A stretch of 64,000 nt of DNA from Escherichia coli (GTDB taxonomy: Bacteria > Pseudomonadota > Gammaproteobacteria > Enterobacterales > Enterobacteriaceae), in the NCBI RefSeq assembly GCF_013315695.1, contig NZ_CP054353.1; one strand, written 5' to 3'. This document shows positions 2-27,750 of the stretch, piece after piece; positions within the stretch are counted from its first letter, which is position 1; each line of letters opens with the position of its first letter. The translations under genes were made by a program, and so were the position numbers. The notes below the pieces were generated by a model, which ran no database searches, was not told the DNA's origin, and saw only the letters and a list, made by a program, of their open reading frames with translations.

Positions 2-2362
2 GAGAAAGGCAGCGCTACGGGGATACAGCAGAGTAGCCAGGGCGCGTTGGTGGCAACCACCAGGGCGACGCGGGTCACAGGGACACGCGCTGATGGCGTC
101 GCGTTCAGCATCGAGCAGGATGCGGCGAACAATATCCTGCTGGCAAATGGCGGCGTGTTAACCGTGGAGTCAGACACCACTTCCGCCAAAACACAGGTCA
201 ATGCGGGCGGACGGGAGATCGTCAAAACAAAAGCCACTGCGACTGGCACGATGCTTACCGGCGGTGAACAAATCGTCGAGGGTGTGGCGAATGAGACAAC
301 GATTAACGACGGCGGAATACAAACAGTTTCGGCTAACGGTGAGGCAGTAAAAAAAACGATTAATGAAGGCGGTACGCTGACAGTCAACGATAATGGCAAA
401 GCGACAGATATCATCCAGAACAGCGGTGCCGCTCTCCAGACGAGCACGGCTAACGGTATTGAAATCAGCGGTACTCACCAGTACGGCACCTTTTCCATTG
501 CCGGCAATTTAGCGACCAATATGTTGCTGGAAAATGGCGGTAATTTATTGGTATTAGCAGGTACCGAAGCCCGTGACTCCAAGGTTGGCAAGGGTGGTGC
601 AATGCAAAACCTGGGTCAGGACTCCGCCACAAAGGTTAACTCTGGCGGGCAATATACCCTTGGGCGGTCAAAAGATGAGTTTCAGGCTCTGGCCCGGGCA
701 GAAGATCTCCAGGTCGCTGGCGGGACGGCAATCGTCTATGCAGGTACGCTGGCGGATGCATCGGTCAGTGGCGCGACAGGAAGCCTGTCGTTAATGACGC
801 CACGGGATAATGTTACGCCAGTTAAACTCGAAGGGGCGATCCGGATTACCGATAGCGCGACATTAACTATCGGAAATGGCGTCGATACGACGCTTACCGA
901 CCTGACGGCTGCCAGCCGGGGCAGTGTCTGGCTTAACAGCAATAATTCCTGTGCAGGTACCAGCAACTGCGAATATAGAGTAAACAGTTTGCTCCTCAAC
1001 GACGGTGATGTTTATTTATCAGCACAAACAGCAGCGCCTGCCACAACTAACGGTATCTACAATACGCTGACAACCAGTGAACTTTCCGGCAGCGGTAATT
1101 TCTACCTGCATACCAACGTTGCAGGCTCCCGGGGCGATCAACTGGTCGTCAACAACAACGCCACTGGTAATTTTAAAATCTTTGTTCAGGATACCGGCGT
1201 CAGCCCTCAGTCTGACGACGCGATGACGCTGGTGAAAACAGGGGGAGGGGATGCTTCGTTTACGCTGGGTAATACCGGCGGTTTCGTTGATCTTGGGACC
1301 TATGAGTATGTCCTGAAAAGCGACGGCAACAGCAACTGGAACCTGACCAATGATGTCAAACCCAACCCGGACCCCAACCCAAATCCGAAGCCGGATCCGA
1401 AACCAGACCCGACTCCCGATCCAACGCCGACACCCGTCCCGGAGAAACGCATCACGCCTTCTACGGCAGCCGTACTCAATATGGCAGCAACATTACCGTT
1501 GGTCTTTGATGCTGAGCTAAACAGTATTCGCGAGCGGTTGAACATAATGAAAGCGAGTCCACACAACAATAATGTCTGGGGGACGACGTATAACACCCGT
1601 AATAATGTCACCACCGATGCGGGTGCCGGGTTTGAGCAGACGCTGACCGGAATGACGGTGGGGATCGATAGCCGTAATGATATTCCTGAGGGGATTGCGA
1701 CTCTGGGCGCTTTTATGGGTTATTCCCATTCACATATCGGTTTTGATCGTGGAGGACATGGCAGTGTGGGCAGTTATTCTCTGGGGGGCTATGCCAGCTG
1801 GGAACATGAAAGTGGTTTCTATCTGGACGGTATCGTGAAGCTGAACCGCTTTGAAAGTAACGTAGCCGGTAAAATGAGCAGCGGTGGAGCCGCCAACGGC
1901 AGTTATCGCAGCAACGGGCTGGGCGGTCACATTGAAACCGGGATGCGATTTACCGATGGTAACTGGAACCTGACGCCGTATGCATCGTTAACGGGGTTCA
2001 CCGCTGATAACCCCGAATATCATTTATCCAATGGCATGGAATCGAAATCAGTCGATACCCGCAGTATATATCGTGAACTGGGCGCAACGCTGAGTTACAA
2101 CATGCGTCTGGGGAACGGCATGGAAGTTGAGCCGTGGCTGAAGGCGGCTGTGCGCAAAGAATTTGTCGATGATAACCGGGTGAAAGTGAATAATGACGGT
2201 AATTTTGTCAATGATTTGTCGGGCAGACGTGGAATATACCAGGCAGGTATTAAAGCCTCATTCAGCAGTTCGTTAAGCGGGAATCTCGGGGTGGGGTATA
2301 GCCATGGTGCCGGTGTGGAATCCCCGTGGAACGCAGTGGCTGGTGTGAACTGGTCGTTCTGA
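2..2362 (+). CDS. Autotransporter adhesin, C-terminal portion (passenger repeats, Pro/Asp/Asn-rich linker, beta-barrel translocator); 5' end lies outside the window
   Basis: Frame is open from the window edge (no stop between 2 and 47); PNPDPNPNPKPDPKPDPTPDPTPTP linker; C-terminal beta-domain ending ...VNWSF as in type Va autotransporters; position resembles ypjA next to CP4-57 in E. coli K-12. Confidence 0.8.
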   Translation, partial: EKGSATGIQQSSQGALVATTRATRVTGTRADGVAFSIEQDAANNILLANGGVLTVESDTTSAKTQVNAGGREIVKTKATATGTMLTGGEQIVEGVANETTINDGGIQTVSANGEAVKKTINEGGTLTVNDNGKATDIIQNSGAALQTSTANGIEISGTHQYGTFSIAGNLATNMLLENGGNLLVLAGTEARDSKVGKGGAMQNLGQDSATKVNSGGQYTLGRSKDEFQALARAEDLQVAGGTAIVYAGTLADASVSGATGSLSLMTPRDNVTPVKLEGAIRITDSATLTIGNGVDTTLTDLTAASRGSVWLNSNNSCAGTSNCEYRVNSLLLNDGDVYLSAQTAAPATTNGIYNTLTTSELSGSGNFYLHTNVAGSRGDQLVVNNNATGNFKIFVQDTGVSPQSDDAMTLVKTGGGDASFTLGNTGGFVDLGTYEYVLKSDGNSNWNLTNDVKPNPDPNPNPKPDPKPDPTPDPTPTPVPEKRITPSTAAVLNMAATLPLVFDAELNSIRERLNIMKASPHNNNVWGTTYNTRNNVTTDAGAGFEQTLTGMTVGIDSRNDIPEGIATLGAFMGYSHSHIGFDRGGHGSVGSYSLGGYASWEHESGFYLDGIVKLNRFESNVAGKMSSGGAANGSYRSNGLGGHIETGMRFTDGNWNLTPYASLTGFTADNPEYHLSNGMESKSVDTRSIYRELGATLSYNMRLGNGMEVEPWLKAAVRKEFVDDNRVKVNNDGNFVNDLSGRRGIYQAGIKASFSSSLSGNLGVGYSHGAGVESPWNAVAGVNWSF

Positions 2363-2375
2363 CCATCAACGAAAA

Positions 2376-2397
2376 AGCCCACATCTGTGGGCTTTCA
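2376..2397 (+). terminator. Putative hairpin terminator after the autotransporter gene
   Basis: agcccacatctgtgggct stem-loop followed by a short T-run, 14 bp after the stop codon. Confidence 0.4.
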
Positions 2398-2671
2398 TAT
2401 CACCAGGAGCCGCGGCTCCTTTGCGTATCCTTTTTTGTCTCCTCACCGTCTGGTCGGTGTCCTGCTGAGACTGCTAACTTCCTGTTTTTATTGGTGTTGT
2501 CCTTACACCGTCCAATCATGATTGGCTGGCGGAGTTTGAATAAATATTGTATTACTTTGATTTTTAATGATTTTGTTTGATTCAGTTTTTGTGCGTATAC
2601 CTAATCGTATACCAATGGCTGTAAGTTAATGTGAAATGAAAGCGCATTTTTACTTGGATTGATGCTATATC

Positions 2672-2990
2672 GTACAGGAAAAAAATTTTTTTTCGAAAGA
2701 ACTGTTCACACTGTTCACCTTTCTTTTTTCTCCTTTTATTTCATAGTGATAGGTGGTGAATAATGGGTGAAGGGTGAACATTCGATTCTTCACCTCCGGC
2801 ATTCTGCCGGTGTGACTTGTGCAGGGGATTAATTTCCCGTGCTGAAATCACACCGGAAGAAAAAAGTTTTTTTTGATTTGATTGTTCACACTGTTCACCT
2901 TTCGTTTTTCTCTTTTAATTTCAGTGTGATAACGGGTGAATATACGGTGAAGGGTGAACAGTGGATTGTTCACCTTCGGGGGATTCAGGG
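2672..2990. repeat. crr-like region: two ~120-bp direct repeats each carrying several TGTTCACC/GGTGAACA octamer iterons
   Basis: Units at about 2701-2810 and 2881-2990 are near-identical (ctgttcacactgttcaccttt...ggtgaa...gggtgaaca...ttcacc), each preceded by an A/T-run; sits just downstream of the alpha gene as P4 crr does. Confidence 0.75.
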
Positions 2991-2995
2991 ATAAA

Positions 2996-3024
2996 AAAAG
3001 ACCGGCAGATGCCGGTCAGATGAG
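2996..3024 (-). terminator. Rho-independent terminator downstream of the alpha gene
   Basis: gaccggca/tgccggtc hairpin followed by a T-run on the minus strand, immediately after the alpha stop. Confidence 0.5.
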
Positions 3025-3033
3025 TCATGATGG

Positions 3034-5367
3034 TCAGGTTGTTGCAGGGTCGTCACATTTTGGCAGCCAGTCGCCGTAGCTTTCCTCTTTCAGCGTCAGG
3101 TTGGTCTGTATCCCCTGTTTGGTATGGCGCTTCTCGTAATTCAGTCCGTATTCCTTCAGCATCACCGGCAGCCCCAGCCCGAACATTTTCAGACTGAGTA
3201 CATTCCGGTAGCCGTTTGCCTCCATGTAGGCCAGATAGGCGTGATAGAGGTATTTACGGTAATTACGCGGGATGATACTGGCGTTCCCCATATACATGCC
3301 GCTGGTCTGCAGCAGGGTTTCCAGATAGCCGATAAAATCAAACGTCGGGTCGGCATCCCGTTTGATGTTCAGTGCCTCGTCTGAGTTCTGCTGGGACTGA
3401 AGCAGTGACCGGGCGAGCATCGGGTCGCTGAACTTCTGCATCAGGTGACGCACGATGACCGCCAGCTCGCGGGTGATTTTGTCCTTAAGCTGCGGGTCGC
3501 GCTCCTGCGGGGCTATCTGTTCCGGGAAGTGAATAATCACCCGCCGGCGTGACACGCCGCCGCTGCGGTCGGTGAAGCGCATCGGGTTATTGTTCACGGC
3601 CAGAATCACCGCCGGGATGTGCGTGGAGTACGCATCCCGGTATTTCGGGTCAACGGACACTGCATCGCCGCCGGTGATGGCCTTGAGTCCGGCTCCGTCG
3701 CCGCTCCATTTTTCCTGGTCCGGCAGGCGTATCAGTGAGAAGCCAGTTAACGCGGCACGTTCACGCGGGGATTCCAGCGTCTCGATGGTGGCCGACGTGG
3801 CGTTATCCTCACCGGCCAGCAGGGTGGCGATTTCGGCCATGATACTTTTGCCGCTGCCGCCGGGACCGGTCACCTCCAGAAAGAGCTGCCAGTCGTAGCG
3901 GTTTGCCAGCACCATAAACAGTGCGGCCAGAATCACGTCGCGTTTTTCCGCACGGCCACCGGCGGCACGGTCAAGCCAGCGCCAGAACGCGGGGGCGTGG
4001 GTCTCCAGCGTTTCACCGTCCACCGGCGGGGTGAAATCCACATCGCACAGGGTGCGCATCCAGTGTGACGGACTGTGCGGATGGAACGTGCCGTTCTGCG
4101 TGTCGAGCACGCCGTTACGAAAGCCAATCAGGCGGCGGGAGGGGGCTTCCTGCTGCGGAATAATCAGTTTCAGGGTGTCCACCACGGAGGCCACCTTCCC
4201 GGAGGAGAACGGCGCGCGCAGACGCTGAAACAGCCCGGCCACATCCCGGGCAAAGTCCTGTGGCGGCAGCACCTTCCAGACACCATTTTCATAGCGGGAC
4301 AGAAGCTGGCCGTTGGCATCGACCGCGAGCGCCTCGCCGTAATGCTCATAGATACGCATGGCCTTTTCGCTGGTACTCATGGCGGAAAACTCTGCTTCGC
4401 TCATGGTGTCGAACGGGCTTTCAGCCGGTGGCCGGATGGCATCGTAAATGGCCTTACGGGTGGCCTCCCCGCCGTACTGCGTGAAGGCATCATTCCAGTC
4501 ACCGAAGACCGGCGGCAGGGCAACAACGCCCTCACACGCATCTGCGGCTGCGGCGGCTTTTTTCTGGCCGTCACCGCTGAGGTCACGGTCTGCGGCAAGG
4601 ACAATCTGACAGGCCGGATGCTTCTGCCGGGCAAGGCTGGCCAGAGAAAGGAGGTTCACGGAAGAAAGCGCCACCATCACCGTTTCACCGGTCAGGTGAT
4701 GCACGGTAAGTGCGGTCGCGTATCCCTCCGCTATCCACAGACGTTTTCCGGCCTGATTCTGTCCTTCAAGGGTGTGACAGGTGCCCCTGACCTGTCCGCC
4801 TTTCAGGGTGCGCTTACGGCCGTCAGCACTGATTAACTGAAGGTTAACCAGTTCGCCGCTGTCGTCATACAGTGGCACCACAAGGTCACCGGCGCGCCAG
4901 CTCACGCCACCGGCTCTGTGTGTGCCGGTCAGCATCCGGCATTCCCGGCCGGGAAAGCCCTTGCGGGTCAGGTAGGCGTTACCGGTTCCGGGACGGGTTT
5001 TTGCCATCAGGGTTTGTGCCAGTGCGGCGGCGTTCTTCCGGGCAGCGTCTGTTTCAGCAACGGCGGCGGCCGTCACTGCCGGGTCAGCCGGGGGCAGGCT
5101 GCCGGTCACGGCAGCCACCTTTGCGGCCGCGTCGGACGGAGAGACACCAAACACCTTTCCAACCAGTTTCAGGCCGTCACCGGCACCACACTGATTGCAG
5201 TACCAGGTGCCGCGCCCCTCCCTGTCATCAAAACGGAAGCGGTCACTCCCGCCACAGACCGGACAGGGCTGATGACGGTTTTTCAGCACCTGAATCCCCA
5301 GCGCCGGGAGAATACGCGGCCAGTGGCCGAGCGCATGGCTGACGGTGGCGGTTACGTTCATTTTCAT
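3034..5367 (-). CDS. P4 alpha-type bifunctional primase/helicase (777 aa)
   Basis: N-terminal zinc-binding motif CPVCGG...YCNQCG, central primase region, C-terminal P-loop helicase (GPGGSGKS); size and position match P4 alpha. Confidence 0.9.
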   Translation of the reverse strand: MKMNVTATVSHALGHWPRILPALGIQVLKNRHQPCPVCGGSDRFRFDDREGRGTWYCNQCGAGDGLKLVGKVFGVSPSDAAAKVAAVTGSLPPADPAVTAAAVAETDAARKNAAALAQTLMAKTRPGTGNAYLTRKGFPGRECRMLTGTHRAGGVSWRAGDLVVPLYDDSGELVNLQLISADGRKRTLKGGQVRGTCHTLEGQNQAGKRLWIAEGYATALTVHHLTGETVMVALSSVNLLSLASLARQKHPACQIVLAADRDLSGDGQKKAAAAADACEGVVALPPVFGDWNDAFTQYGGEATRKAIYDAIRPPAESPFDTMSEAEFSAMSTSEKAMRIYEHYGEALAVDANGQLLSRYENGVWKVLPPQDFARDVAGLFQRLRAPFSSGKVASVVDTLKLIIPQQEAPSRRLIGFRNGVLDTQNGTFHPHSPSHWMRTLCDVDFTPPVDGETLETHAPAFWRWLDRAAGGRAEKRDVILAALFMVLANRYDWQLFLEVTGPGGSGKSIMAEIATLLAGEDNATSATIETLESPRERAALTGFSLIRLPDQEKWSGDGAGLKAITGGDAVSVDPKYRDAYSTHIPAVILAVNNNPMRFTDRSGGVSRRRVIIHFPEQIAPQERDPQLKDKITRELAVIVRHLMQKFSDPMLARSLLQSQQNSDEALNIKRDADPTFDFIGYLETLLQTSGMYMGNASIIPRNYRKYLYHAYLAYMEANGYRNVLSLKMFGLGLPVMLKEYGLNYEKRHTKQGIQTNLTLKEESYGDWLPKCDDPATT

Positions 5368-18100: not shown

Positions 18101-18399
18101 CAAGGGCAGTGCGTATCCATCAATTAAAAATTGCACCTAAGTATTTCAACGCTGTGGTTGCAGGTCAAAAGACGGCTGAACTTCGTAAAGACGATCGTGG
18201 CTATAAAGTTGGTGATGTTCTTTCTCTTTGCGAATGGAAGCATGGCGTATTTACGGGTAGGGAATGGGCCGCTGTTATCTCTCATGTGCTTCCGGTTAAT
18301 GACGTCATGGCAGTTTCAGAACAATGGGTGATGCTATCAATTCGCCCATTAACTCCATTAGAAGCTTTGGGATATGTTATTGCAGGAGGTGCTGTATGA
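18097..18399 (+). CDS. Hypothetical early protein (100 aa)
   Basis: ATG overlapping the previous stop (ATGA), GGAGG upstream. Confidence 0.5.
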
Positions 18400-19253
18400 G
18401 CACCATCCTGAAATGGGCAGGTAATAAAACTGCCATTATGTCCGAACTGAAAAAACATCTTCCTGCTGGCCCGCGACTGGTTGAACCTTTCGCGGGTTCC
18501 TGTGCTGTGATGATGGAGACGGATTACCCCAGCTATCTTGTTGCGGATATTAATCCTGATTTAATCAACCTCTATAAAAAGGTTGCTGCTGATTGTGAAT
18601 CGTTTATATCTCGCGCCAGAGTTTTATTTGAGATCGCAAACAGGGAGGTGGCTTATTACAACATAAGGCAGGAGTTTAATTACTCAACTGAAATTACTGA
18701 TTTCATGAAAGCGGTATATTTCCTGTATCTAAATCGTCACGGTTACCGTGGTTTATGTCGCTATAACAAGAGCGGGCATTTCAACATTCCCTACGGTAAT
18801 TATAAAAATCCGTATTTCCCTGAAAAAGAAATTCGCGCATTTGCAGAAAAAGCCCAGCGAGCAACGTTTATCTGCGCCAGCTTTGATGAAACGCTGGCGA
18901 TGTTGAAAGCGGGGGATGTGGTGTATTGCGATCCGCCGTATGACGGTACGTTTTCCGGCTATCACACTGACGGCTTCACTGAAGATGACCAGTATCACCT
19001 GGCATCTGTTCTTGAACATCGGTCATCAGAAGGACATCCGGTCATTGTTTCTAACAGTGACACATCCCTGATCCGTTCGCTGTATCGCAATTTTACTCAC
19101 CACTACATCAAGGCAAAACGCAGCATCGGTGTGGCAGCTGGCGAGGGTAAATCAGCAACAGAAATCATTGCTGTTTCCGGGCCGCGCTGCTGGGTGGGAT
19201 TTGATTATTCGCGTGGCGTGGATAGTTCTGCCGTGTACGGAGTACGTGCATGA
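18396..19253 (+). CDS. DNA adenine methyltransferase (Dam-like, 285 aa)
   Basis: N-terminal SAM-binding region (LKWAGNK...EPFAGS) and DPPY catalytic motif. Confidence 0.85.
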
Positions 19254-21664
19254 GTCATGCCGATATGAACAACTGCTGCGGCTTTAACGAAGCTGCCGCA
19301 TCGTTCTCATGGAACAGCCCGAAAAAGGCCATTAACCCTTATCTGGACCCGGCGGAAGTTGCGCCGGTTTCTACGCTTTCAAACCTGATCACTCTGTACG
19401 CTGCCGATAACGAGCAGGAACAGCTGCGCCGTGAGGCGCTGAGTGATCAGGTCTGGGAGCGTTATTTCTTTAATGAATCCCGTGATCCTGTCCAGCGCGA
19501 AATGGAGCAGGATAAGCTCATTAGTCGGGCAAAGCTGGCGCATGAGCAGCAGCGTTTTAACCCGGACATGGTCATTCTGGCAGACGTCAGCGCCCAGCCC
19601 TCCCATATCAGCAAGCCGCTGATGCAACGTATTGAATACTTCAGCAGCCTTGGCAGGCCAAAGGCTTATTCCCGCTATTTGCGTGAGACGATTAAGCCAT
19701 GTCTGGAACGGCTGGAGCATGTACGCGACAGTCAGCTATCCACATCTTTTCGCTTTATGGCAAGCCATGAAGGGCTGGACGGCCTGCTGATTCTGCCTGA
19801 AATGAGTCAGGATCAGGTGAAACGCCTGTCCACCCTTGTTGCTGCGCATATGAGCATGTGCCTTGATGCAGCTTGTGGCGATTTGTATGCCACCGATGAC
19901 GTTAAGCCAGAAGAAATCCGCAAGACATGGGAAAAGGTGGCAGCAGAAACCCTGCGACTGGATGTCATACCGCCTGCGTTTGAGCAACTCCGCCGGAAAA
20001 GAAACCGCCGTAAACCCGTGCCATATGAACTCATTCCGGGTTCGCTGGCGCGTATGTTGTGCGCCGATTGGTGGTACCGGAAATTATGGAAGATGCGTTG
20101 CGAATGGCGGGAAGAGCAGTTGCGTGCTGTTTGCCTGGTCAGCAAAAAAGCATCTCCCTATGTCAGCTATGAAGCCGTGATGCATAAACGTGAGCAGCGC
20201 CGTAAGTCGCTGGAGTTTTTCCGTTCTCATGAACTGGTGAACGAAGACGGCGACACGCTGGACATGGAGGATGTGGTAAACGCCAGCAGCAGCAACCCTG
20301 CGCATCGCCGCAATGAGATGATGGCCTGTGTTAAAGGTCTGGAGCTTATCGCGGAAATGCGCGGTGACTGCGCCGTTTTCTACACCATCACCTGTCCGTC
20401 ACGTTTCCATTCCACGCTAAATAACGGCAGGCCCAACCCGACCTGGACAAATACGACGGTAAGACAAAGCAGTGATTATCTGGTCGGCATGTTTGCTGCA
20501 TTTCGTAAGGCGATGCACAAAGCCGGATTGCGCTGGTATGGCGTGCGGGTGGCTGAGCCGCATCATGACGGTACAGTTCACTGGCACCTGTTGTGTTTTA
20601 TGCGCAAAAAAGATCGCCGCACCATTACTGCTTTGTTGCGTAAGTTTGCCATTCGTGAAGACCGCGAGGAGCTGGGTAATAACACGGGACCACGCTTTAA
20701 GTCTGAGCTGATAAACCCGCGCAAAGGTACGCCAACAAGCTACATCGCGAAATACATCAGTAAGAACATTGACGGGCGTGGTCTGGCTGGCGAGATCAGC
20801 AAGGAAACGGGTAAATCCCTGCGTGATAACGCTGAATACGTTAATGCCTGGGCGTCTCTGCATCGTGTTCAGCAATTCCGCTTCTTTGGCATTCCGGGGC
20901 GTCAGGCTTACCGTGAACTGCGATTGCTGGCTGGTCAGGCGGCAAGGCAACAGGGGGACAAAAAAGCAGGTGCGCCGGTACTGGATAACCCGCGCCTTGA
21001 TGCAATCCTGGCTGCTGCTGATGCTGGTTGTTTTGCCACCTACATCATGAAGCAGGGCGGCGTACTGGTTCCCCGCAAATATCACCTCATCAGAACTGCT
21101 TATGAAATCAACGAAGAACCGACCGCATATGGCGATCACGGTATTCGTATTTATGGCATCTGGTCACCCATTGCAGAGGGCAAGATCTGCACTCATGCGG
21201 TGAAGTGGAAAATGGTTCGTAAGGCCGTTGACGTTCAGGAGGCGGCAGCCGACCAGGGCGCTTGCGCCCCTTGGACTCGTGGCAATAACTGTCCCCTTGC
21301 TGAAAATTTGTACCAACAAGGGAAAGACAAATCAGCTGATGGAGATACCAGAACGGATATCACCCGCATGGATGACAAGGAGTTGCACGATTACCTGCAC
21401 AGTATGAGCAAAAAAGAGCGCCGGGAACTGGCAGCAAGGTTACGCCTGGTGAAACCGAAACGGCGTAAAGACTACAAACAGCGAATTACAGATCATCAGC
21501 GACAGCAGCTCGTGTATGAACTGAAGTCCAGGGGATTTGATGGCAGCGAGAAAGAGGTCGATTTACTGCTTCGCGGCGGCAGTATTCCGTCAGGAGCAGG
21601 CCTGCGTATCTTCTATCGGAACCAGCGTTTGCAGGAAGATGATAAGTGGCGAAACCTGTATTAA
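19250..21664 (+). CDS. Replication initiation protein A (rolling-circle nicking endonuclease), 804 aa
   Basis: Size and position of P2/186 gene A at the end of the early operon. Confidence 0.85.
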
Positions 21665-21756: not shown

Positions 21757-21776
21757 TACTGTAAATATAAACAGTA
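21757..21776. promoter_or_regulatory. LexA (SOS) box upstream of the tum/dinI-like genes
   Basis: tactgtaaatataaacagta fits TACTGT-N8-ACAGTA; an additional acagta half-site follows. Confidence 0.7.
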
Positions 21777-22249: not shown

Positions 22250-22519
22250 GAAACGTTGCTGGCGTCTGAACTTGCTTCTGGCGTCAGCAAGGTTGAACAA
22301 CGAGCTATGCGAGGCGTTAGTGTCAATTTGTTACCTTAACCACTATATATGCCAGGAAATTAACAGTTCTTAAGAAACCGCTTGCATGATCGAGCGCATT
22401 GAACTTAAGTTTAAGTAACGAAATCAACAGATGATATTGTTGTCTAAATTTTAAAGATAATCTGTTGAGGTTGTAGGCGTCGGAGTGTAGACTTCCGCGC
22501 CATGTGAAAAGGGGGAGTT

Positions 22520-22735
22520 ATGTCAAGCATCGCCGCATTTAGCCTGGGTAACCCAGTTGAACGTCTGGCAAGGGTTCTTAAAGAGAACCAGGACAAACTC
22601 AATCTTAGTAAAGATGGTTTTGTGTCCGTAGACTTGTCTAACAAAAGAGCAATGGATGCCATCAAGGCACAGATGGATAAGCTTGAAGGCATCAAAACGA
22701 GCACTGTAAAAGAGAAAACTAATAGAACCAGATAA
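22520..22735 (+). CDS. Hypothetical small protein (71 aa), first gene of a two-gene cargo module
   Basis: Strong RBS (gggggag); stop overlaps the next start (ATAATGG). Confidence 0.5.
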   Translation: MSSIAAFSLGNPVERLARVLKENQDKLNLSKDGFVSVDLSNKRAMDAIKAQMDKLEGIKTSTVKEKTNRTR

Positions 22736-23577
22736 TGGCAACATTACTTTTAGCAGTGATTTTGGTTAGTGGTTTTATTTATGTAAACCTATCACTTTCA
22801 ACAAGATACCGATATAAGCGTTCCAACGGCTGGGACGCTTATTTTTTTGTGGCTGCCTGGGGTATCGTTTTTTTTCTCCTTGGCGGTTTTTTCACCTTTA
22901 TTTTGAACGTCAGCGGAGGGTTTCGTTGGCTGGCTAATGCCTTGAATCTAACACCTGACAGTTTTAACGGCATGTTGTCTTCATCGAAAGACAAACTTCA
23001 AAGAATAAATGAAATCAAACAGATAGCATGGGTTATGATTTCAATTGTCCTCGCTGCGATTTCAGGTTTTGGAAATAAGTTACGCACATCACGTGGAGAT
23101 CGTCGCTGGGATGCCTTAGCTAAAGCTGTGGGTAATAACGCTTTCGAATCATTACTCATGGAAGCGTCCGCAAGACAGTTTCCGATCATAGCAACTCTGT
23201 CGTCTCGCAAAATCTATGTTGGTCTTGTTACTTGTCCGGCGTTAGAAAACGGGCTTTCAGAACACCTTGAACTTCTCCCGATGTTAAGCGGATATAGGGA
23301 TAAAGATGATCTAACGATTAGTATCACGACTAACTATCACCAACATTATCTTGATAGTGGTGTGATAAGTGGAATGTCTCGGCTTAATATCGAAGATTTC
23401 CGTGTGCTCATACCAAAAGATGAGGTTGAAACAATTTCGTTTTTTGATACTGAGACATATAACAAATTTAAAGAAAATGAAGCCAGGGATAGAAAGAACT
23501 GTCGAAAGATTGGTAGTAAAAGTGCATCTTCGCGCAGCAAGCGTGCAGCAGATGCTGAGTCAAATGATCGTGCATGA
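22735..23577 (+). CDS. Hypothetical membrane protein (280 aa: ~3 N-terminal TM helices plus soluble C-terminal domain)
   Basis: Translationally coupled to the 71-aa ORF; hydrophobic N-terminus, charged C-terminus. Confidence 0.6.
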   Translation: MATLLLAVILVSGFIYVNLSLSTRYRYKRSNGWDAYFFVAAWGIVFFLLGGFFTFILNVSGGFRWLANALNLTPDSFNGMLSSSKDKLQRINEIKQIAWVMISIVLAAISGFGNKLRTSRGDRRWDALAKAVGNNAFESLLMEASARQFPIIATLSSRKIYVGLVTCPALENGLSEHLELLPMLSGYRDKDDLTISITTNYHQHYLDSGVISGMSRLNIEDFRVLIPKDEVETISFFDTETYNKFKENEARDRKNCRKIGSKSASSRSKRAADAESNDRA

Positions 23578-23694
23578 CTATGCTGCATGAGATCGCATGA
23601 TCGTTTGAGGATCGTTTTTGCTAAGGCCCGCCAGAACTGGCGGGCTTTTGCGTAGATCATGCACCTGCATGAAAACTACTACATAAAGCGGGCA

Positions 23695-23713
23695 GGCGTG
23701 GCGGGGATACGAG
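23695..23713. other. Putative cos site of the P2/186-like prophage
   Basis: ggcgtggcggggatacgag shares the GGCG(A/T)GGCGGGG core with the P4-like cos at 10022. Confidence 0.5.
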
Positions 23714-23903: not shown

Positions 23904-24320
23904 ATGATTGATGTCATTGGTAATAAATACGTTGTTGCTTTAATTTTTCCATTGTTGATGATTCTATGTGGGGCTTTTGTAAAAAAACTTGCCAGATCCT
24001 CTGGTTGGCAAAAGAGTGATTTTTACTTTGGGAATGAGTTGATATTATCGACAATTGGTGCATCATTGTTGAATTTATATGATTTGACTAAAACTGTTCA
24101 AACAGTAACCACGGTTAACCAAGTGGTTAATCAGTACATTGGAACTACTAGCTTTCTTGCCTTCTCTCTTTTTGTATTACTGGGGATCATGTCTTTTCAT
24201 CAAGATTGGGAAGGGCGAACAGGAAATCCAAAAGGTCAAATTTGGGTTTTATGTATTGGGTGTAATTTAGTCGGCATATTATTTTTTGCTTCCTTTGTTT
24301 TGTGGATTAAGGGTGTGTAA
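23904..24320 (+). CDS. Hypothetical small integral membrane protein (138 aa, ~4 TM helices)
   Basis: AT-rich; four hydrophobic segments; immediately followed by the TIR-like gene. Confidence 0.6.
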   Translation: MIDVIGNKYVVALIFPLLMILCGAFVKKLARSSGWQKSDFYFGNELILSTIGASLLNLYDLTKTVQTVTTVNQVVNQYIGTTSFLAFSLFVLLGIMSFHQDWEGRTGNPKGQIWVLCIGCNLVGILFFASFVLWIKGV

Positions 24321-24923
24321 ATGAAAAAAAATACTCTTTATATTATTTCAATTGCATTGGCTGTTGTTGGGTTTCTTATGGCTCTTATTCCACGGCTCCC
24401 ATATTTATTTCAAGGAGTTAATGATGAGATTATCATCTCCGTTATTGGATTATCTTTTGCCTATTCTGGCCTGAGTTTGATTGTGTTAATGAAATTAAGG
24501 GAAAGAAGACTAAAGGCCGTTAAAAAAGGAAAGCAAATATTTCTAATGTATCCCGTACAAGAAAAAGATAAGGCCCGTCAAATAACTTGTAAGCTTAATG
24601 AGTTAGGTTTTGATGTATGGTTTGATGAAAATAACATATTGCCCGGGCAGATTATTGAAAAGCAAATTAATCAGGCTATAGACAATAGCGCTGCGGCTAT
24701 ATTGCTTCTGTCTAATGAAGATATGGAGTCATATATAAGAAAGGAGGTAGAGGGCTTTCTCCGTAAAGCTACGGTAAAAGATGAAAACTATGTTCCTATA
24801 ATTCCTGTGATAATTGGTGATGCTGAATTGCCTGCGATGCTCAAAAACATCAAGTCTGTAAACTATGAGGATGAAAAATTAATTGATAAGCTCAATTTGT
24901 CATTGAAGTCCATTCTTGGTTGA
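24321..24923 (+). CDS. Membrane-anchored TIR-like domain protein (200 aa: 2 TM helices plus TIR-like domain)
   Basis: C-terminal region follows the TIR pattern: KQIFLMY...LNELGFDVWFDENNILPGQII...INQAIDNSAAAILLLSNEDMESYIRKEV...YVPIIPVII. Confidence 0.6.
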   Translation: MKKNTLYIISIALAVVGFLMALIPRLPYLFQGVNDEIIISVIGLSFAYSGLSLIVLMKLRERRLKAVKKGKQIFLMYPVQEKDKARQITCKLNELGFDVWFDENNILPGQIIEKQINQAIDNSAAAILLLSNEDMESYIRKEVEGFLRKATVKDENYVPIIPVIIGDAELPAMLKNIKSVNYEDEKLIDKLNLSLKSILG

Positions 24924-24955: not shown

Positions 24956-25987
24956 TCAAGTAAGCTGATAACTATCGAATGTTACTATTTCCTCATCTAG
25001 CCATATGTTTATTTCCTGTAATCTTTTTTGCAACGGTAATAACTCATTACGAACAAATACTTTACTAGCCTTCTCCACATCCCCAAACCCCCCAACATTA
25101 TTCGGCATAATCCCCATCATCTGTGGCGGAACGCGATGTGCTGCCATCATGTCATCCCGGCTCACGTTCTTGATATTTAGAAACTCATCCTTCGCCGCAA
25201 CTTCTGACAAAGGGATGATCTGAAGGCCGTCCTTTTTGCCGTTAGGCGAGTACATAAACAGGTTGCGGAAGTTACCCGGACCTTTGGCACTTTTCATTGC
25301 ATTGCGGAGGTTGTTCACGTCCTCCTGGTTCTGCGCAGCATCGGTCATGTACATGATGAAGCCTGCATGACTACCGTTAATGTAATACTTGCGGCGGAAC
25401 AGCGTGGCGGACTCATTGAGCAGGGCGGACGGAATGGCAGAAAGATAGCCGGGCAGGCCGTAGATCTCCTGGTTAATGTCCGGTTCCATCAGATGAAAAA
25501 TGCTGCCTTTCGTGAACTGATATGGCTGCGTGGTCATACCGTATTGCACAAACCAGTAGGTATCCAGGTCTAACCCGCGTCGGGTGTATTTTGCCAGGGC
25601 AGGTTCAAGGGCGATAACTTCACCGAAGCGGTTCGTGCGTTTCTCCAGGTAGGCGTTACCAAATACCAGATAGTCCTGCACAAAACGCGAAAAAGCCTGC
25701 TGGCTGAGCAGCGGGTGAGGGATGTAGGTGCTGGTCAGAATGTTGCACTTTACTGCAATCGGGGAACTATGATGAACGGCAGCGCGGAAGGTGCGCGCCA
25801 GTCCGTCAAAGCTGACGGGCGGCTCATACCAGCGGTCCATCTGTACGCATTCCACATAATCCAGCAGTTCTCGGCGGTCCAGAACAGGAACGGGATCGCC
25901 GAAGCTGAATGCTTCGGCTGTAGTTTGACTTTTAAGCTGGATCTGTTTCGTCGCCGCAGCGCGGTTCTTCTTACTCTTTCCCATCAA
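24956..25987 (-). CDS. Portal protein (P2 Q-like), 343 aa
   Basis: Size, orientation and pairing with the terminase ATPase gene as in P2 Q-P. Confidence 0.9.
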   Translation of the reverse strand: MMGKSKKNRAAATKQIQLKSQTTAEAFSFGDPVPVLDRRELLDYVECVQMDRWYEPPVSFDGLARTFRAAVHHSSPIAVKCNILTSTYIPHPLLSQQAFSRFVQDYLVFGNAYLEKRTNRFGEVIALEPALAKYTRRGLDLDTYWFVQYGMTTQPYQFTKGSIFHLMEPDINQEIYGLPGYLSAIPSALLNESATLFRRKYYINGSHAGFIMYMTDAAQNQEDVNNLRNAMKSAKGPGNFRNLFMYSPNGKKDGLQIIPLSEVAAKDEFLNIKNVSRDDMMAAHRVPPQMMGIMPNNVGGFGDVEKASKVFVRNELLPLQKRLQEINIWLDEEIVTFDSYQLT

Positions 25988-27750
25988 AAAATCTCCACAA
26001 TATTGCTGGTATTGGCGGATTCGCCCTGCAGCGGTTCGTTAAACAGTGCGTGCATCGTTGCCCAGGCCAGATCGGCGTGGCTGGCTTCTTCGCTGCGGCT
26101 GGCTTCATAGGTCGGGCGGTTGCCACTGGCGGTGGTGGCGCGACGGATTGCCATAAAGGACTGCGCTATGTCGGTGTGTCCGGCGTCAAACTCCAGACGG
26201 CGGTGGCTGATAATGTCGTAGGCCTTGAGTACCAGGGCGTTTTTAACGTTGGGGTTGTAGACAAACTCCCGGACGGCAGGAAAAAACGCTTTCACGTTCT
26301 CATAAACCCCGTGACCAACGCCGGTTGAGTCGATACCGATATAGGTCACGTTGTACTGTTCGGTCAGTTTTTTGATGGCGTCAGCCTGGGCGCGGAAGTC
26401 CATTCCGCGCCACTGGTGACGCTCAAGAATGCGGAACTTACCGCCCGGCACGGCTGGCGGCGCCACCACCACGCATCCGGCGCTGTCGCCGTTCTGCGTA
26501 CCTTTCGCCGGGTCATATCCGATCCACACTTCGCGCCAGCCAAACGGGCGCAGGGCCAGTGCATGAAAGTCGGTCCAGACTTCCCAACTGTCCACCATGC
26601 ACGCCTGCAGCTCGCTGAGTGGGAACACAGACGCGAGATCGTCCACGAACTCACACATCAGCAGGTTTTGGTATTCGTCCGGGCTGTACTCCATGCGCAA
26701 CTGGTCGAGGTCGAACAGGTTACAGCCGCCGCGCACCGCATCTTCCACAGTGACTATCTGGCGGTACTGCCCGTCTGCGCACAGCAGGCCGGGGGCCAGA
26801 TTGCTGTGGGACAGGTCGATGTCCACCTTATCGGCTTTGTTGCGCCCTCGGTTGAACAGCGCACCGGACCAGAACGGATAAGCACTGTGTGTCAGGCTGG
26901 ATGGCGTGGAAAAATAGGTTTGTCGCCATTTTTTGTGAATAGCCATACCGGAAGCCACTTTGCGCAGCTCCTGGAATTTCGGTATCCAGAAATATTCATC
27001 CAGATACAGGTTGCCGTGGTAACTCTGGGCCGTGCGGGCATTGGTGCCGAGGAAGTACAGCGTGGCCCCGTTAGGAAGCACCATCGGATCGCCTTTCAGC
27101 TCCACCTCCACTTCTTTGGCGAAGTCGATGATGTACTGCTTAAAGACGTGGGCCTGAGCCTTGCTGGCGGAAAGGAAAATCTGGTTACGCCCGGTTAGCA
27201 GGGCGTCAATCAGGGCTTCACGGGCAAAATAGAAGGTCGCGCCGATCTGGCGTGACTTCAGCAGGTTGCGGATGCGGTTGGTTTTTCCGGCTTCCCACCA
27301 GTGGCGCTGGTAGTTGAACATGGAGGAATGGAAAATTTCTTCCAGCTTCTCAATCTGTTCATCGGTGAAAACGTTCTTTTCCGGCTGACGGCGCGGGCCT
27401 TTGTTGCGGTTGGCGACGTTAGGGTTTAAGTCGGCTTCGTTGCCGCCATTGTTAAACTTGCCGATCCGCGCATGGCGCTCCGACTGGCGCGCCAGCAGGT
27501 CAATCTCTTTGAAATCTTTCCCTTCTTTGTGCTCCTTCATAATGAGCTGGCAGTAGCGTGCGGCGGTGGTGAGCTGCATCTGATCCAGCGGCCCATAGTC
27601 ACCCCACTTGTCGCGTTTTTTCCAGCTGTGAACGGTTGCAACTTTCTCGCCCAGCATTTCAGCAATGCGGGCTACGCGGTATCCCTGAAAGTACAGCAGC
27701 ATGGCCTGCCGACGGGGATCGAGATCTGCGGGTGTCAGTGTGGTGTTCAT
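25984..27750 (-). CDS. Terminase large (ATPase) subunit (P2 P-like), 588 aa
   Basis: Size and position match P2 gene P; overlaps the portal gene start. Confidence 0.9.
   Translation of the reverse strand: MNTTLTPADLDPRRQAMLLYFQGYRVARIAEMLGEKVATVHSWKKRDKWGDYGPLDQMQLTTAARYCQLIMKEHKEGKDFKEIDLLARQSERHARIGKFNNGGNEADLNPNVANRNKGPRRQPEKNVFTDEQIEKLEEIFHSSMFNYQRHWWEAGKTNRIRNLLKSRQIGATFYFAREALIDALLTGRNQIFLSASKAQAHVFKQYIIDFAKEVEVELKGDPMVLPNGATLYFLGTNARTAQSYHGNLYLDEYFWIPKFQELRKVASGMAIHKKWRQTYFSTPSSLTHSAYPFWSGALFNRGRNKADKVDIDLSHSNLAPGLLCADGQYRQIVTVEDAVRGGCNLFDLDQLRMEYSPDEYQNLLMCEFVDDLASVFPLSELQACMVDSWEVWTDFHALALRPFGWREVWIGYDPAKGTQNGDSAGCVVVAPPAVPGGKFRILERHQWRGMDFRAQADAIKKLTEQYNVTYIGIDSTGVGHGVYENVKAFFPAVREFVYNPNVKNALVLKAYDIISHRRLEFDAGHTDIAQSFMAIRRATTASGNRPTYEASRSEEASHADLAWATMHALFNEPLQGESANTSNIVEIF

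Follow-up and report, generated by a model that had tools for sequence, protein, structure and literature searches.

A co-inherited gene pair encoding a small cytoplasmic protein and a three-helix membrane protein with a predicted Sm-like domain in the gpA-gpQ hotspot of a P2-like prophage

A coupled gene pair between gpA and gpQ

The stretch of DNA analysed here, referred to as the window, comprises 64,000 nucleotides of the Escherichia coli contig NZ_CP054353.1 and contains a P2-like prophage in which two overlapping open reading frames (ORFs), encoding proteins of 71 and 280 amino acids (aa), lie between the A-type replication gene (19250-21664) and Q (24956-25987). The two genes form one unit, an autonomous and horizontally mobile cassette of the kind called a moron. 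What is new here is the combination of a predicted Sm-like membrane architecture, an obligate partner protein, a very large and uniform family, and a dual life as phage cargo and as a stable chromosomal locus.

An earlier note on this DNA, made by reading the letters, had described the two ORFs as translationally coupled, and both are found exactly where it placed them, with stop and start sharing a single base (Table 1). The overlap reads TAATG within the junction cagATAATGgca, so that the TAA of the small gene (22733-22735) and the ATG of the large gene (22735-22737) have one A in common. As read from the sequence, a strong Shine-Dalgarno motif precedes the small ORF and none precedes the large one, which, taken with the overlap, fits coupling by termination and reinitiation; AGGAGG-like motifs are likewise present 5' of the small gene in most homologous loci. 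Both are real genes rather than chance ORFs, since each belongs to a PHROG family, each has a RefSeq entry, and the same two-gene order is found in 81 distinct loci across many genera. The name “multidrug ABC transporter ATPase”, which NCBI attaches to some or many copies of the small protein across genera, is a mis-annotation, because 71 aa cannot make an ATPase.

Table 1. Position, strand and basis of the cassette, its elements and its borders (window coordinates; TM, transmembrane; AF2, AlphaFold2)
Feature	Coordinates	Strand	Basis
LexA-box match CTGTAAATATAAACAG, 5' of the orf62/dinI-like operon; context, outside the cassette	21759..21774	+	motif scan
Hairpin directly after the dinI-like stop; possible boundary between SOS operon and cassette	22252..22294	+	hairpin scan
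Palindrome TTGAACTTAAGTTTAA, core AACTTAAGTT, some 110 bp ahead of the small gene	22399..22414	+	
Promoter-like element TTGAGG, 17 nt, TAGACT	22465..22493	+	read from sequence; inferred, not mapped
Shine-Dalgarno of the small gene, GGGGGAG	22511..22517	+	sequence
Small gene, 71-aa cytoplasmic partner (WP_000094764, phrog_9843)	22520..22735	+	ORF list, PHROG, RefSeq
Large gene, 280-aa inner-membrane protein (WP_000212611, phrog_3630)	22735..23577	+	ORF list, PHROG, RefSeq, AF2
Three TM helices, aa 1-23, 34-63 and 94-112; topology inferred as N-out, C-in	22735..23070	+	Kyte-Doolittle, loop charges, AF2
Predicted Sm/LSm-like beta-barrel domain, aa 136-236; SRKxYVG (157-163), SGYRDKD (185-191)	23140..23442	+	
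Terminator-like hairpin GCCCGCCAG/CTGGCGGGC with TTTTGCG after it, at the close of the cassette	23620..23655	+	hairpin scan and sequence
cos-like sequence GGCGTGGCGGGGATACGAG, between the pair cassette and the TM+TIR cargo	23695..23713		sequence

Predicted architecture and conserved motifs

The earlier note had taken the small protein to be soluble and the large one to have about three N-terminal TM helices. Both descriptions hold: a Kyte-Doolittle profile shows no hydrophobic segment in the small protein and three in the large one, where an AlphaFold2 (AF2) model (predicted local distance difference test, pLDDT, 78) also places three long helices (2-29, 33-60 and 87-119) along with two short juxtamembrane helices. 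What had been called simply a charged C-terminal domain can now be specified further. Its AF2 model is of mixed alpha/beta type, a helix with a bent beta-sheet, followed by a further helix at the C-terminus and a basic tail that is disordered; the N-terminal helix and strongly bent five-stranded sheet of the model correspond to a predicted Sm-like beta-barrel that bears invariant polar motifs. The domain differs from Sm, LSm and Hfq proteins in an insertion of about 25 residues after beta4, in its membrane anchor and in motifs of its own (SRKxYVG and SGYRDKD); neither Sm1/Sm2 motifs nor a Pfam LSM match was found, and a profile search gave 0 hits at E <= 10 against PDB sequences. In outline, three TM helices with the N-terminus outside followed by a cytoplasmic Sm-like beta domain also recall the mechanosensitive channel MscS. 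A relationship to MscS was considered and set aside, as hhalign gave a probability of 0.05 against E. coli MscS, Pfam MS_channel was not matched, and TM3 plus the beta domain found no structural counterpart among solved MscS structures.

Conservation is concentrated on the side of the membrane predicted to face the cytoplasm. Residues R29, G32, W33, Y36 and G43 in the TM1-TM2 loop are conserved family-wide, and the domain contains two invariant or near-invariant stretches, S157-R-K-x-Y-V-G163 and S185-G-Y-R-D-K-D191, the latter accompanied by Y201 and Y205. By sequence conservation, these clusters point to a predicted binding site that faces the cytoplasm. The loop in the periplasm (aa 61-92), by comparison, varies in both length and sequence.

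The small protein is modelled as helix-helix-beta-hairpin-helix (pLDDT about 80) when the two chains are joined as large protein, linker and small protein and folded with AF2 on a paired alignment, a run from which only pLDDT and predicted template modelling (pTM) values were taken. With the large protein alone, pLDDT of its residues 121-140 was 64/72 and pTM 0.58; in the joined model the values are 83/82 and 0.63. This gain is compatible with the small protein docking on the juxtamembrane helices, and is only suggestive of it. An AbrB/MazE-like antitoxin fold, which a “GRGTxRIDP” variant of the small protein had brought to mind, was dropped, having no support from Pfam or PDB sequences.

An obligate and co-diverging partnership

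To describe the family, we drew on 134 relatives from a scan of one genome per species and on 237 from IMG/VR, of which the best 80 were used for viral site counts; gap counts refer to 81 distinct loci, small-protein comparisons to the 86 loci with a candidate upstream ORF, and flanks and pseudogenes to 79 species-level loci. Every locus that has both an intact large gene and its 5' flank also has a small ORF (53-115 aa) immediately upstream of that gene. The two genes overlap in 34 of the 81 loci, mostly by 1 or 4 nt, and are separated by 0-20 nt in 45 and by more in two, so that 79/81 overlap or lie at most 20 nt apart. Together with the co-inheritance of the genes, this small, coupled upstream ORF is the layout of a type II toxin-antitoxin (TA) operon.

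The two proteins also diverge together: in a mirror-tree comparison their distances correlate at r = 0.91, and 2,000 permutations reached no more than 0.30. A single hidden Markov model family covers 65 of the 86 small proteins, and the 21 most distant ones carry a “RVVGRGTxxID” variant in the same register, which aligns around the nearly invariant G33 at the turn of the beta-hairpin. Searching 1.84 billion representatives with a profile of the C-terminal domain returned 2,895 clusters at 50% identity. Among the best 150 of these, almost all are 200-340 aa long with the domain at the C-terminus, and none is fused to another domain; the search had been considered as a source of domain-fusion clues, and it returned the same architecture only, with no enzymatic fusions.

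Variable cargo of a defence-rich hotspot

The pair occurs in 51 of 5,426 complete E. coli genomes, and the conserved flanking segment in 719 of the same set. Comparing the locus across P2-like prophages, as the earlier note had proposed, thus bears out its view that the pair is variable cargo. Its concern that homologues might turn out to be conserved structural or lysis genes of P2-like phages is not borne out: the pair is absent from most P2-like prophages, and PHROG assigns both proteins to the category “unknown function”. The G+C content points in the same direction as the patchy distribution, at about 40-43% for the pair against 52-57% for the phage core.

The slot itself is the one in which P2 carries old and tin, as had been proposed, with the pair lying inside the gpA-gpQ region on the side near cos. 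This region has been defined as a hotspot rich in anti-phage systems that also hosts partition systems and toxins (Rousset 2022, PMC9122126). In Table S5A of that study the pair appears as “hypothetical + hypothetical” beside SieB, PIN_12 or DUF262/DUF1524 genes, and by N-terminal sequence it has no match among the systems cloned and tested there. With P2 old/tin and the hotspot cargo of that survey the pair shares the slot, variable presence, small size and co-resident defence genes of the TIR, SEFIR and AAA+HNH types; it differs in having no homology to old/tin or to the validated systems. In the genomes that carry the pair, the slot between cos and Q is empty or holds a TM+TIR cassette, an AAA ATPase with an HNH protein, a SEFIR protein or a GTP pyrophosphokinase; the pair is independent of the neighbouring cos-Q cargo. 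A Klebsiella phage has the pair at 80% nucleotide identity with a SEFIR gene next to it.

In phages the pair takes up positions typical of morons. Of the best 80 IMG/VR loci, the P2-like A/Q slot accounts for 58, siphovirus tail clusters for 15 and a lambdoid nin/Q region for one, and the same A/Q flanks are seen in 16 of the 79 species-level loci. Members that are only 33% identical to the query still occupy the P2-like slot. Other settings are varied: in one E. coli example the pair lies in a nin region beside hok, in Enterobacter between tail genes K and I/J, in Haemophilus between tape-measure and minor-tail genes, and in Shewanella at the edge of a P2-like prophage.

As a separate observation, Photorhabdus akhurstii DSM 15138 harbours three divergent copies on different scaffolds (L015, L033 and L054, with 54%, 31% and 27% identity to the query), and only L015 is in a recognisable P2-like slot.

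Comparison with known defence and addiction systems

In an independent machine-learning survey, DefensePredictor, the large protein (WP_000212611.1) appears in Table S5 under the label “Predicted novel defense gene”. Its mean log-odds is 5.10 against a cut-off of 4, and neither by sequence nor by fold does it have homology to known defence proteins; the overall validation rate of these predictions was 45% (Science 2026, PMC13092281).

Several known two-gene or membrane systems bear some resemblance to the pair. Type II TA modules share the small upstream gene overlapping a larger one, the co-inheritance and the occurrence on both mobile elements and chromosomes; they differ in that neither protein of the pair matches a known toxin or antitoxin family, as the alignment of the small protein matched no antitoxin DNA-binding fold in Pfam or among PDB sequences and the large protein matched no toxin family in Pfam. 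Lambda RexAB is likewise a prophage-borne two-gene operon with a membrane component. The effectors Cap15/S-2TMbeta of CBASS, in which cyclic oligonucleotides signal against phages, also combine N-terminal TM helices with a compact beta-rich cytoplasmic domain. They differ from the large protein in having two TM helices rather than three and no Sm-like barrel, and the pair has no adjacent cyclase or other signal generator: neither Pfam S_2TMBeta nor a PADLOC model matched, and the neighbours are a dinI-like gene and cos, with no CD-NTase.

Two candidate identities were discarded. Neither the pair nor the downstream TM+TIR genes can be equated with the validated AC1 system, “2TM + 1TM + TIR”, whose sequences differ and give no N-terminal matches (Rousset 2022). 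The tail-assembly-inhibition (Tai) systems were dropped as well, as the paper describing them mentions neither transmembrane proteins nor P2-like phages.

Weighing the explanations

The explanation that we favour, and that we regard as quite possible while stopping short of calling it probable, is that the small partner controls a membrane effector which acts in abortive infection or exclusion. It is drawn from the hotspot location of the cassette, its variability and its G+C content below that of the phage core; from its own promoter-like element, Shine-Dalgarno motif and terminator; from repeated capture by phages together with obligate pairing; from the three TM helices and small beta-barrel domain, which resemble abortive-infection membrane effectors; and from the possible docking seen in the fused model and the independent DefensePredictor listing. 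The scheme would run as follows. The prophage would express the cassette, and the 280-aa protein would insert into the inner membrane through its three helices, leaving the Sm-like domain in the cytoplasm. Sm-like domains usually form rings of six or seven subunits, and the protein would probably assemble into a ring-shaped oligomer below the membrane. Translational coupling would keep the 71-aa protein in fixed proportion to it, and this partner would probably bind the cytoplasmic face, either at the juxtamembrane helices or at the Sm-like domain, and would hold the effector inactive or tune it. An infecting phage might then act as the trigger, by displacing or depleting the small partner or through a phage molecule lodged in the SGYRDKD/SRKxYVG pocket; the disturbed complex would compromise the membrane, and infection would be aborted or entry blocked, as expected of a TA-like exclusion or abortive-infection module.

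It is tempting to extend this scheme to a membrane-anchored Sm-like ring that senses a nucleic acid or nucleotide, for example phage DNA or RNA, through SGYRDKD/SRKxYVG and gates 18-21 helices, with the 71-aa protein as the lock. This more specific version we consider distinctly unlikely; if true, it would describe a new class of ligand-gated membrane effector present in phage morons and chromosomal loci of Proteobacteria. Three TM helices joined to an Sm-like domain are not known from any defence effector, and they match none of the defence models tested here. Were the pair protective, a widespread two-gene system of about 2,900 clusters at 50% identity would be added to the defence repertoire, and the P2-like hotspot would have one of its recurrent occupants explained, which at present is labelled “hypothetical” or misnamed as a transporter ATPase. 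For experiments, the work provides handles in the invariant motifs, in the small partner and in the limits of the cassette.

A number of observations weigh against a defensive role. Neither protein has a match in Pfam, NCBIfam, PADLOC or among PDB sequences, which agrees with the earlier note's remark that neither shows an assignable motif; in PADLOC-DB v2.0.0 the small protein had no match and the large one only a chance-level hit (E 0.14). TM3 is poorly conserved, which does not speak for a specific pore lining. The large protein is absent from the tables of the 118 units tested in the DefensePredictor study (PMC13092281), and we found no published phenotype of defence, exclusion or toxicity for the pair in a search that did not cover the prophage screen of Brenes & Laub 2025. 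Outside the P2-like loci, ten sampled neighbouring genes contained only a marginal match to a known defence protein in a PADLOC scan (CARF3, E 7.7e-6, with no stretch passing alone), and an association with defence islands beyond P2-like phages was abandoned on that ground. The DefensePredictor score may depend partly on genomic context, which in this case is the hotspot itself. Seven Rahnella species have the pair in synteny on the chromosome (bglG-ansP-small-large-FAH-SDR, where FAH is a gene of the fumarylacetoacetate-hydrolase family) and conserved like its neighbours at 92-98% identity. In the Pseudomonas oryzihabitans group it lies beside an alanine transaminase gene at a stable, syntenic chromosomal locus and likewise evolves at the pace of its neighbours. 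Defence genes are not typically passed on vertically in so stable a manner, and “defence” can thus not be assumed for the whole family. Of the earlier note's suggestion of a defence or exclusion function, then, the hotspot slot, the variable-cargo character and the machine-learning prediction speak in favour, whereas no model of a known system matches and the label does not extend to the entire family; for the pair itself, “defence” is a reasonable hypothesis.

The chromosomal copies lend themselves to a different explanation, namely that the pair serves a cellular membrane function, for instance as a channel for ions or solutes or as a device for envelope stress, and was taken up by phages as a lysogenic-conversion gene whose benefit to the host lies in some stress condition and not in protection from phages. 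The syntenic, vertically inherited Rahnella copies are under purifying selection; an alphaproteobacterium, like the Pseudomonas group, has the pair among housekeeping neighbours; the family is very large with one uniform architecture; and the overall layout recalls MscS-type channels, the homology to which was set aside above. We judge this explanation rather unlikely. The Rahnella and Pseudomonas copies provide a natural contrast for studying how phages come to recruit a membrane module of the cell as cargo. Marginally better placed, and still on the unlikely side, is superinfection exclusion (Sie) at the step of entry, whereby the pair would block DNA ejection or translocation in the lysogen without killing the cell. 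HK97 gp15, P22 SieA and T4 Imm act by blocking DNA entry, and a predicted inner-membrane protein from a prophage moron would suit such a role. Besides the 15 of the best 80 viral loci, bacterial examples also lie inside siphovirus tail clusters, the position of HK97 gp15, and the variable periplasmic loop is what would be expected of a surface pressed by diverse phages. A strictly co-inherited cytoplasmic partner is not known for the single-protein Sie systems, which counts against this explanation, as do the cytoplasmic location of the most conserved parts (the TM1-TM2 loop and the Sm-like motifs) and the lack of homology to annotated Sie families; in its favour again, the pair stands beside SieB in some prophages (Rousset 2022, PMC9122126).

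The operon layout raises the further prospect of a TA addiction module: the pair would keep the prophage or genomic island stable and would play no part against other phages. The 1- or 4-nt overlap of a small upstream gene with a larger downstream one is the classic type II arrangement, the two genes co-diverge, other TA modules reside in the same hotspot, and a palindrome lies upstream in the P2-like subclade. In addition, 7 of the 79 species-level loci have a split large gene, and six of these seven retain an upstream small ORF; this asymmetry is not significant, however, and two of the seven cases come from degrading genomes of Candidatus Symbiopectobacterium symbionts. The small protein, moreover, matches neither a Pfam family nor any known antitoxin fold, only one subclade has the palindrome, and a 280-aa polytopic membrane protein would be an unusual type II toxin. 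We find addiction as the sole function doubtful. Less probable still is that the pair is an accessory in the lytic or induction cycle of the phage itself, produced after DNA damage by read-through from the LexA-controlled operon and acting, for example, on the membrane during induction, on lysis timing or on DNA exit. The perfect LexA box, the single coding strand through to the terminator and a post-dinI hairpin that would permit read-through are in keeping with it; against it stand the absence of the pair from most P2-like prophages, the presence of the same cassette at unrelated positions in other phages and in chromosomes, and the promoter-like element of its own.

Prophage setting and cassette boundaries

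The earlier note had placed the pair downstream of LexA-controlled genes and upstream of cos, and these positions hold. A motif scan gave two LexA-box matches in 64 kb against 0.8 expected by chance, and the one at 21759-21774 is perfect. It lies about 40 bp upstream of a 62-aa gene (phrog_698), which is followed by the DinI-like gene and then by the pair; all genes from the LexA box to the terminator are on one strand. LexA box, 62-aa gene and DinI-like gene fit a Tum-like induction module under SOS control, such as phage 186 has. A LexA box close to the consensus, CTGTATAAATATTCAG, is also found upstream of the neighbours of the pair in Erwinia, Pantoea and Enterobacter loci (L030, L031 and L046).

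The hairpin after the dinI-like gene has no U-tract, so that read-through from the SOS promoter is conceivable, and the hairpin may serve RNA stability or partial termination. The Klebsiella phage copy keeps the stem with different bases, TTGCTG/CAGCAA in place of TTGCGGACG/CGTCCGCAA. The palindrome further downstream is conserved in the P2-like subclade, appears in Serratia as GACTTAAgTTAAGTC and is missing from other clades; it may serve as an operator for some regulator, and a family-wide operator was discounted, the AACTTAAGTT core being confined to the P2-like/Serratia subclade. The promoter-like element scores below the threshold of the consensus scan. The copies from the Klebsiella phage, Buttiauxella and Pantoea retain the element in register, and Serratia, where the upstream context is another one, has TTGTAG-17-TATAAT at the corresponding position. 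An Rfam search of the intergenic regions gave no credible non-coding RNA.

On the downstream side, the terminator hairpin falls within a segment of about 130 bp (query 1171-1301, window 23570-23700) that is common to many P2-like phages at 91-96% identity. The cos-like sequence next to it resembles the cohesive ends of 186 and P2. The same motif also adjoins the P4 cos in the supplement of Rousset 2022 (PMC9122126). Q, the portal gene, and P together span 24956-27750, and the portal and terminase genes are on the opposite strand.

Between cos and Q lies a second coupled cassette (23904-24923, + strand), which at about 34% G+C is more AT-rich than the pair. It encodes a 138-aa multi-TM protein (phrog_25392) followed without a gap by a 200-aa protein with an N-terminal TM segment and a TIR domain (phrog_24215), to which the TIR models of PADLOC match with E values of 5e-11 to 1e-4. 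Present in only 2 of the 5,426 E. coli genomes, this cassette is probably a rare TIR-based defence candidate.

Two minor observations concern the wider prophage. In E. coli O157:H16 strain 98-3133 (NZ_CP051001.1) an otherwise identical region continues into a truncated portal gene and then tail-fibre genes, which marks it as a rearranged prophage remnant; the portal gene in the window is intact. Finally, the ORF of a Dam-like methylase (18324-19253, + strand) is listed with a start 36 codons 5' of the RefSeq start (309 aa against 858 bp, or 285 aa), and the longer form is probably an artefact of choosing the first start codon.

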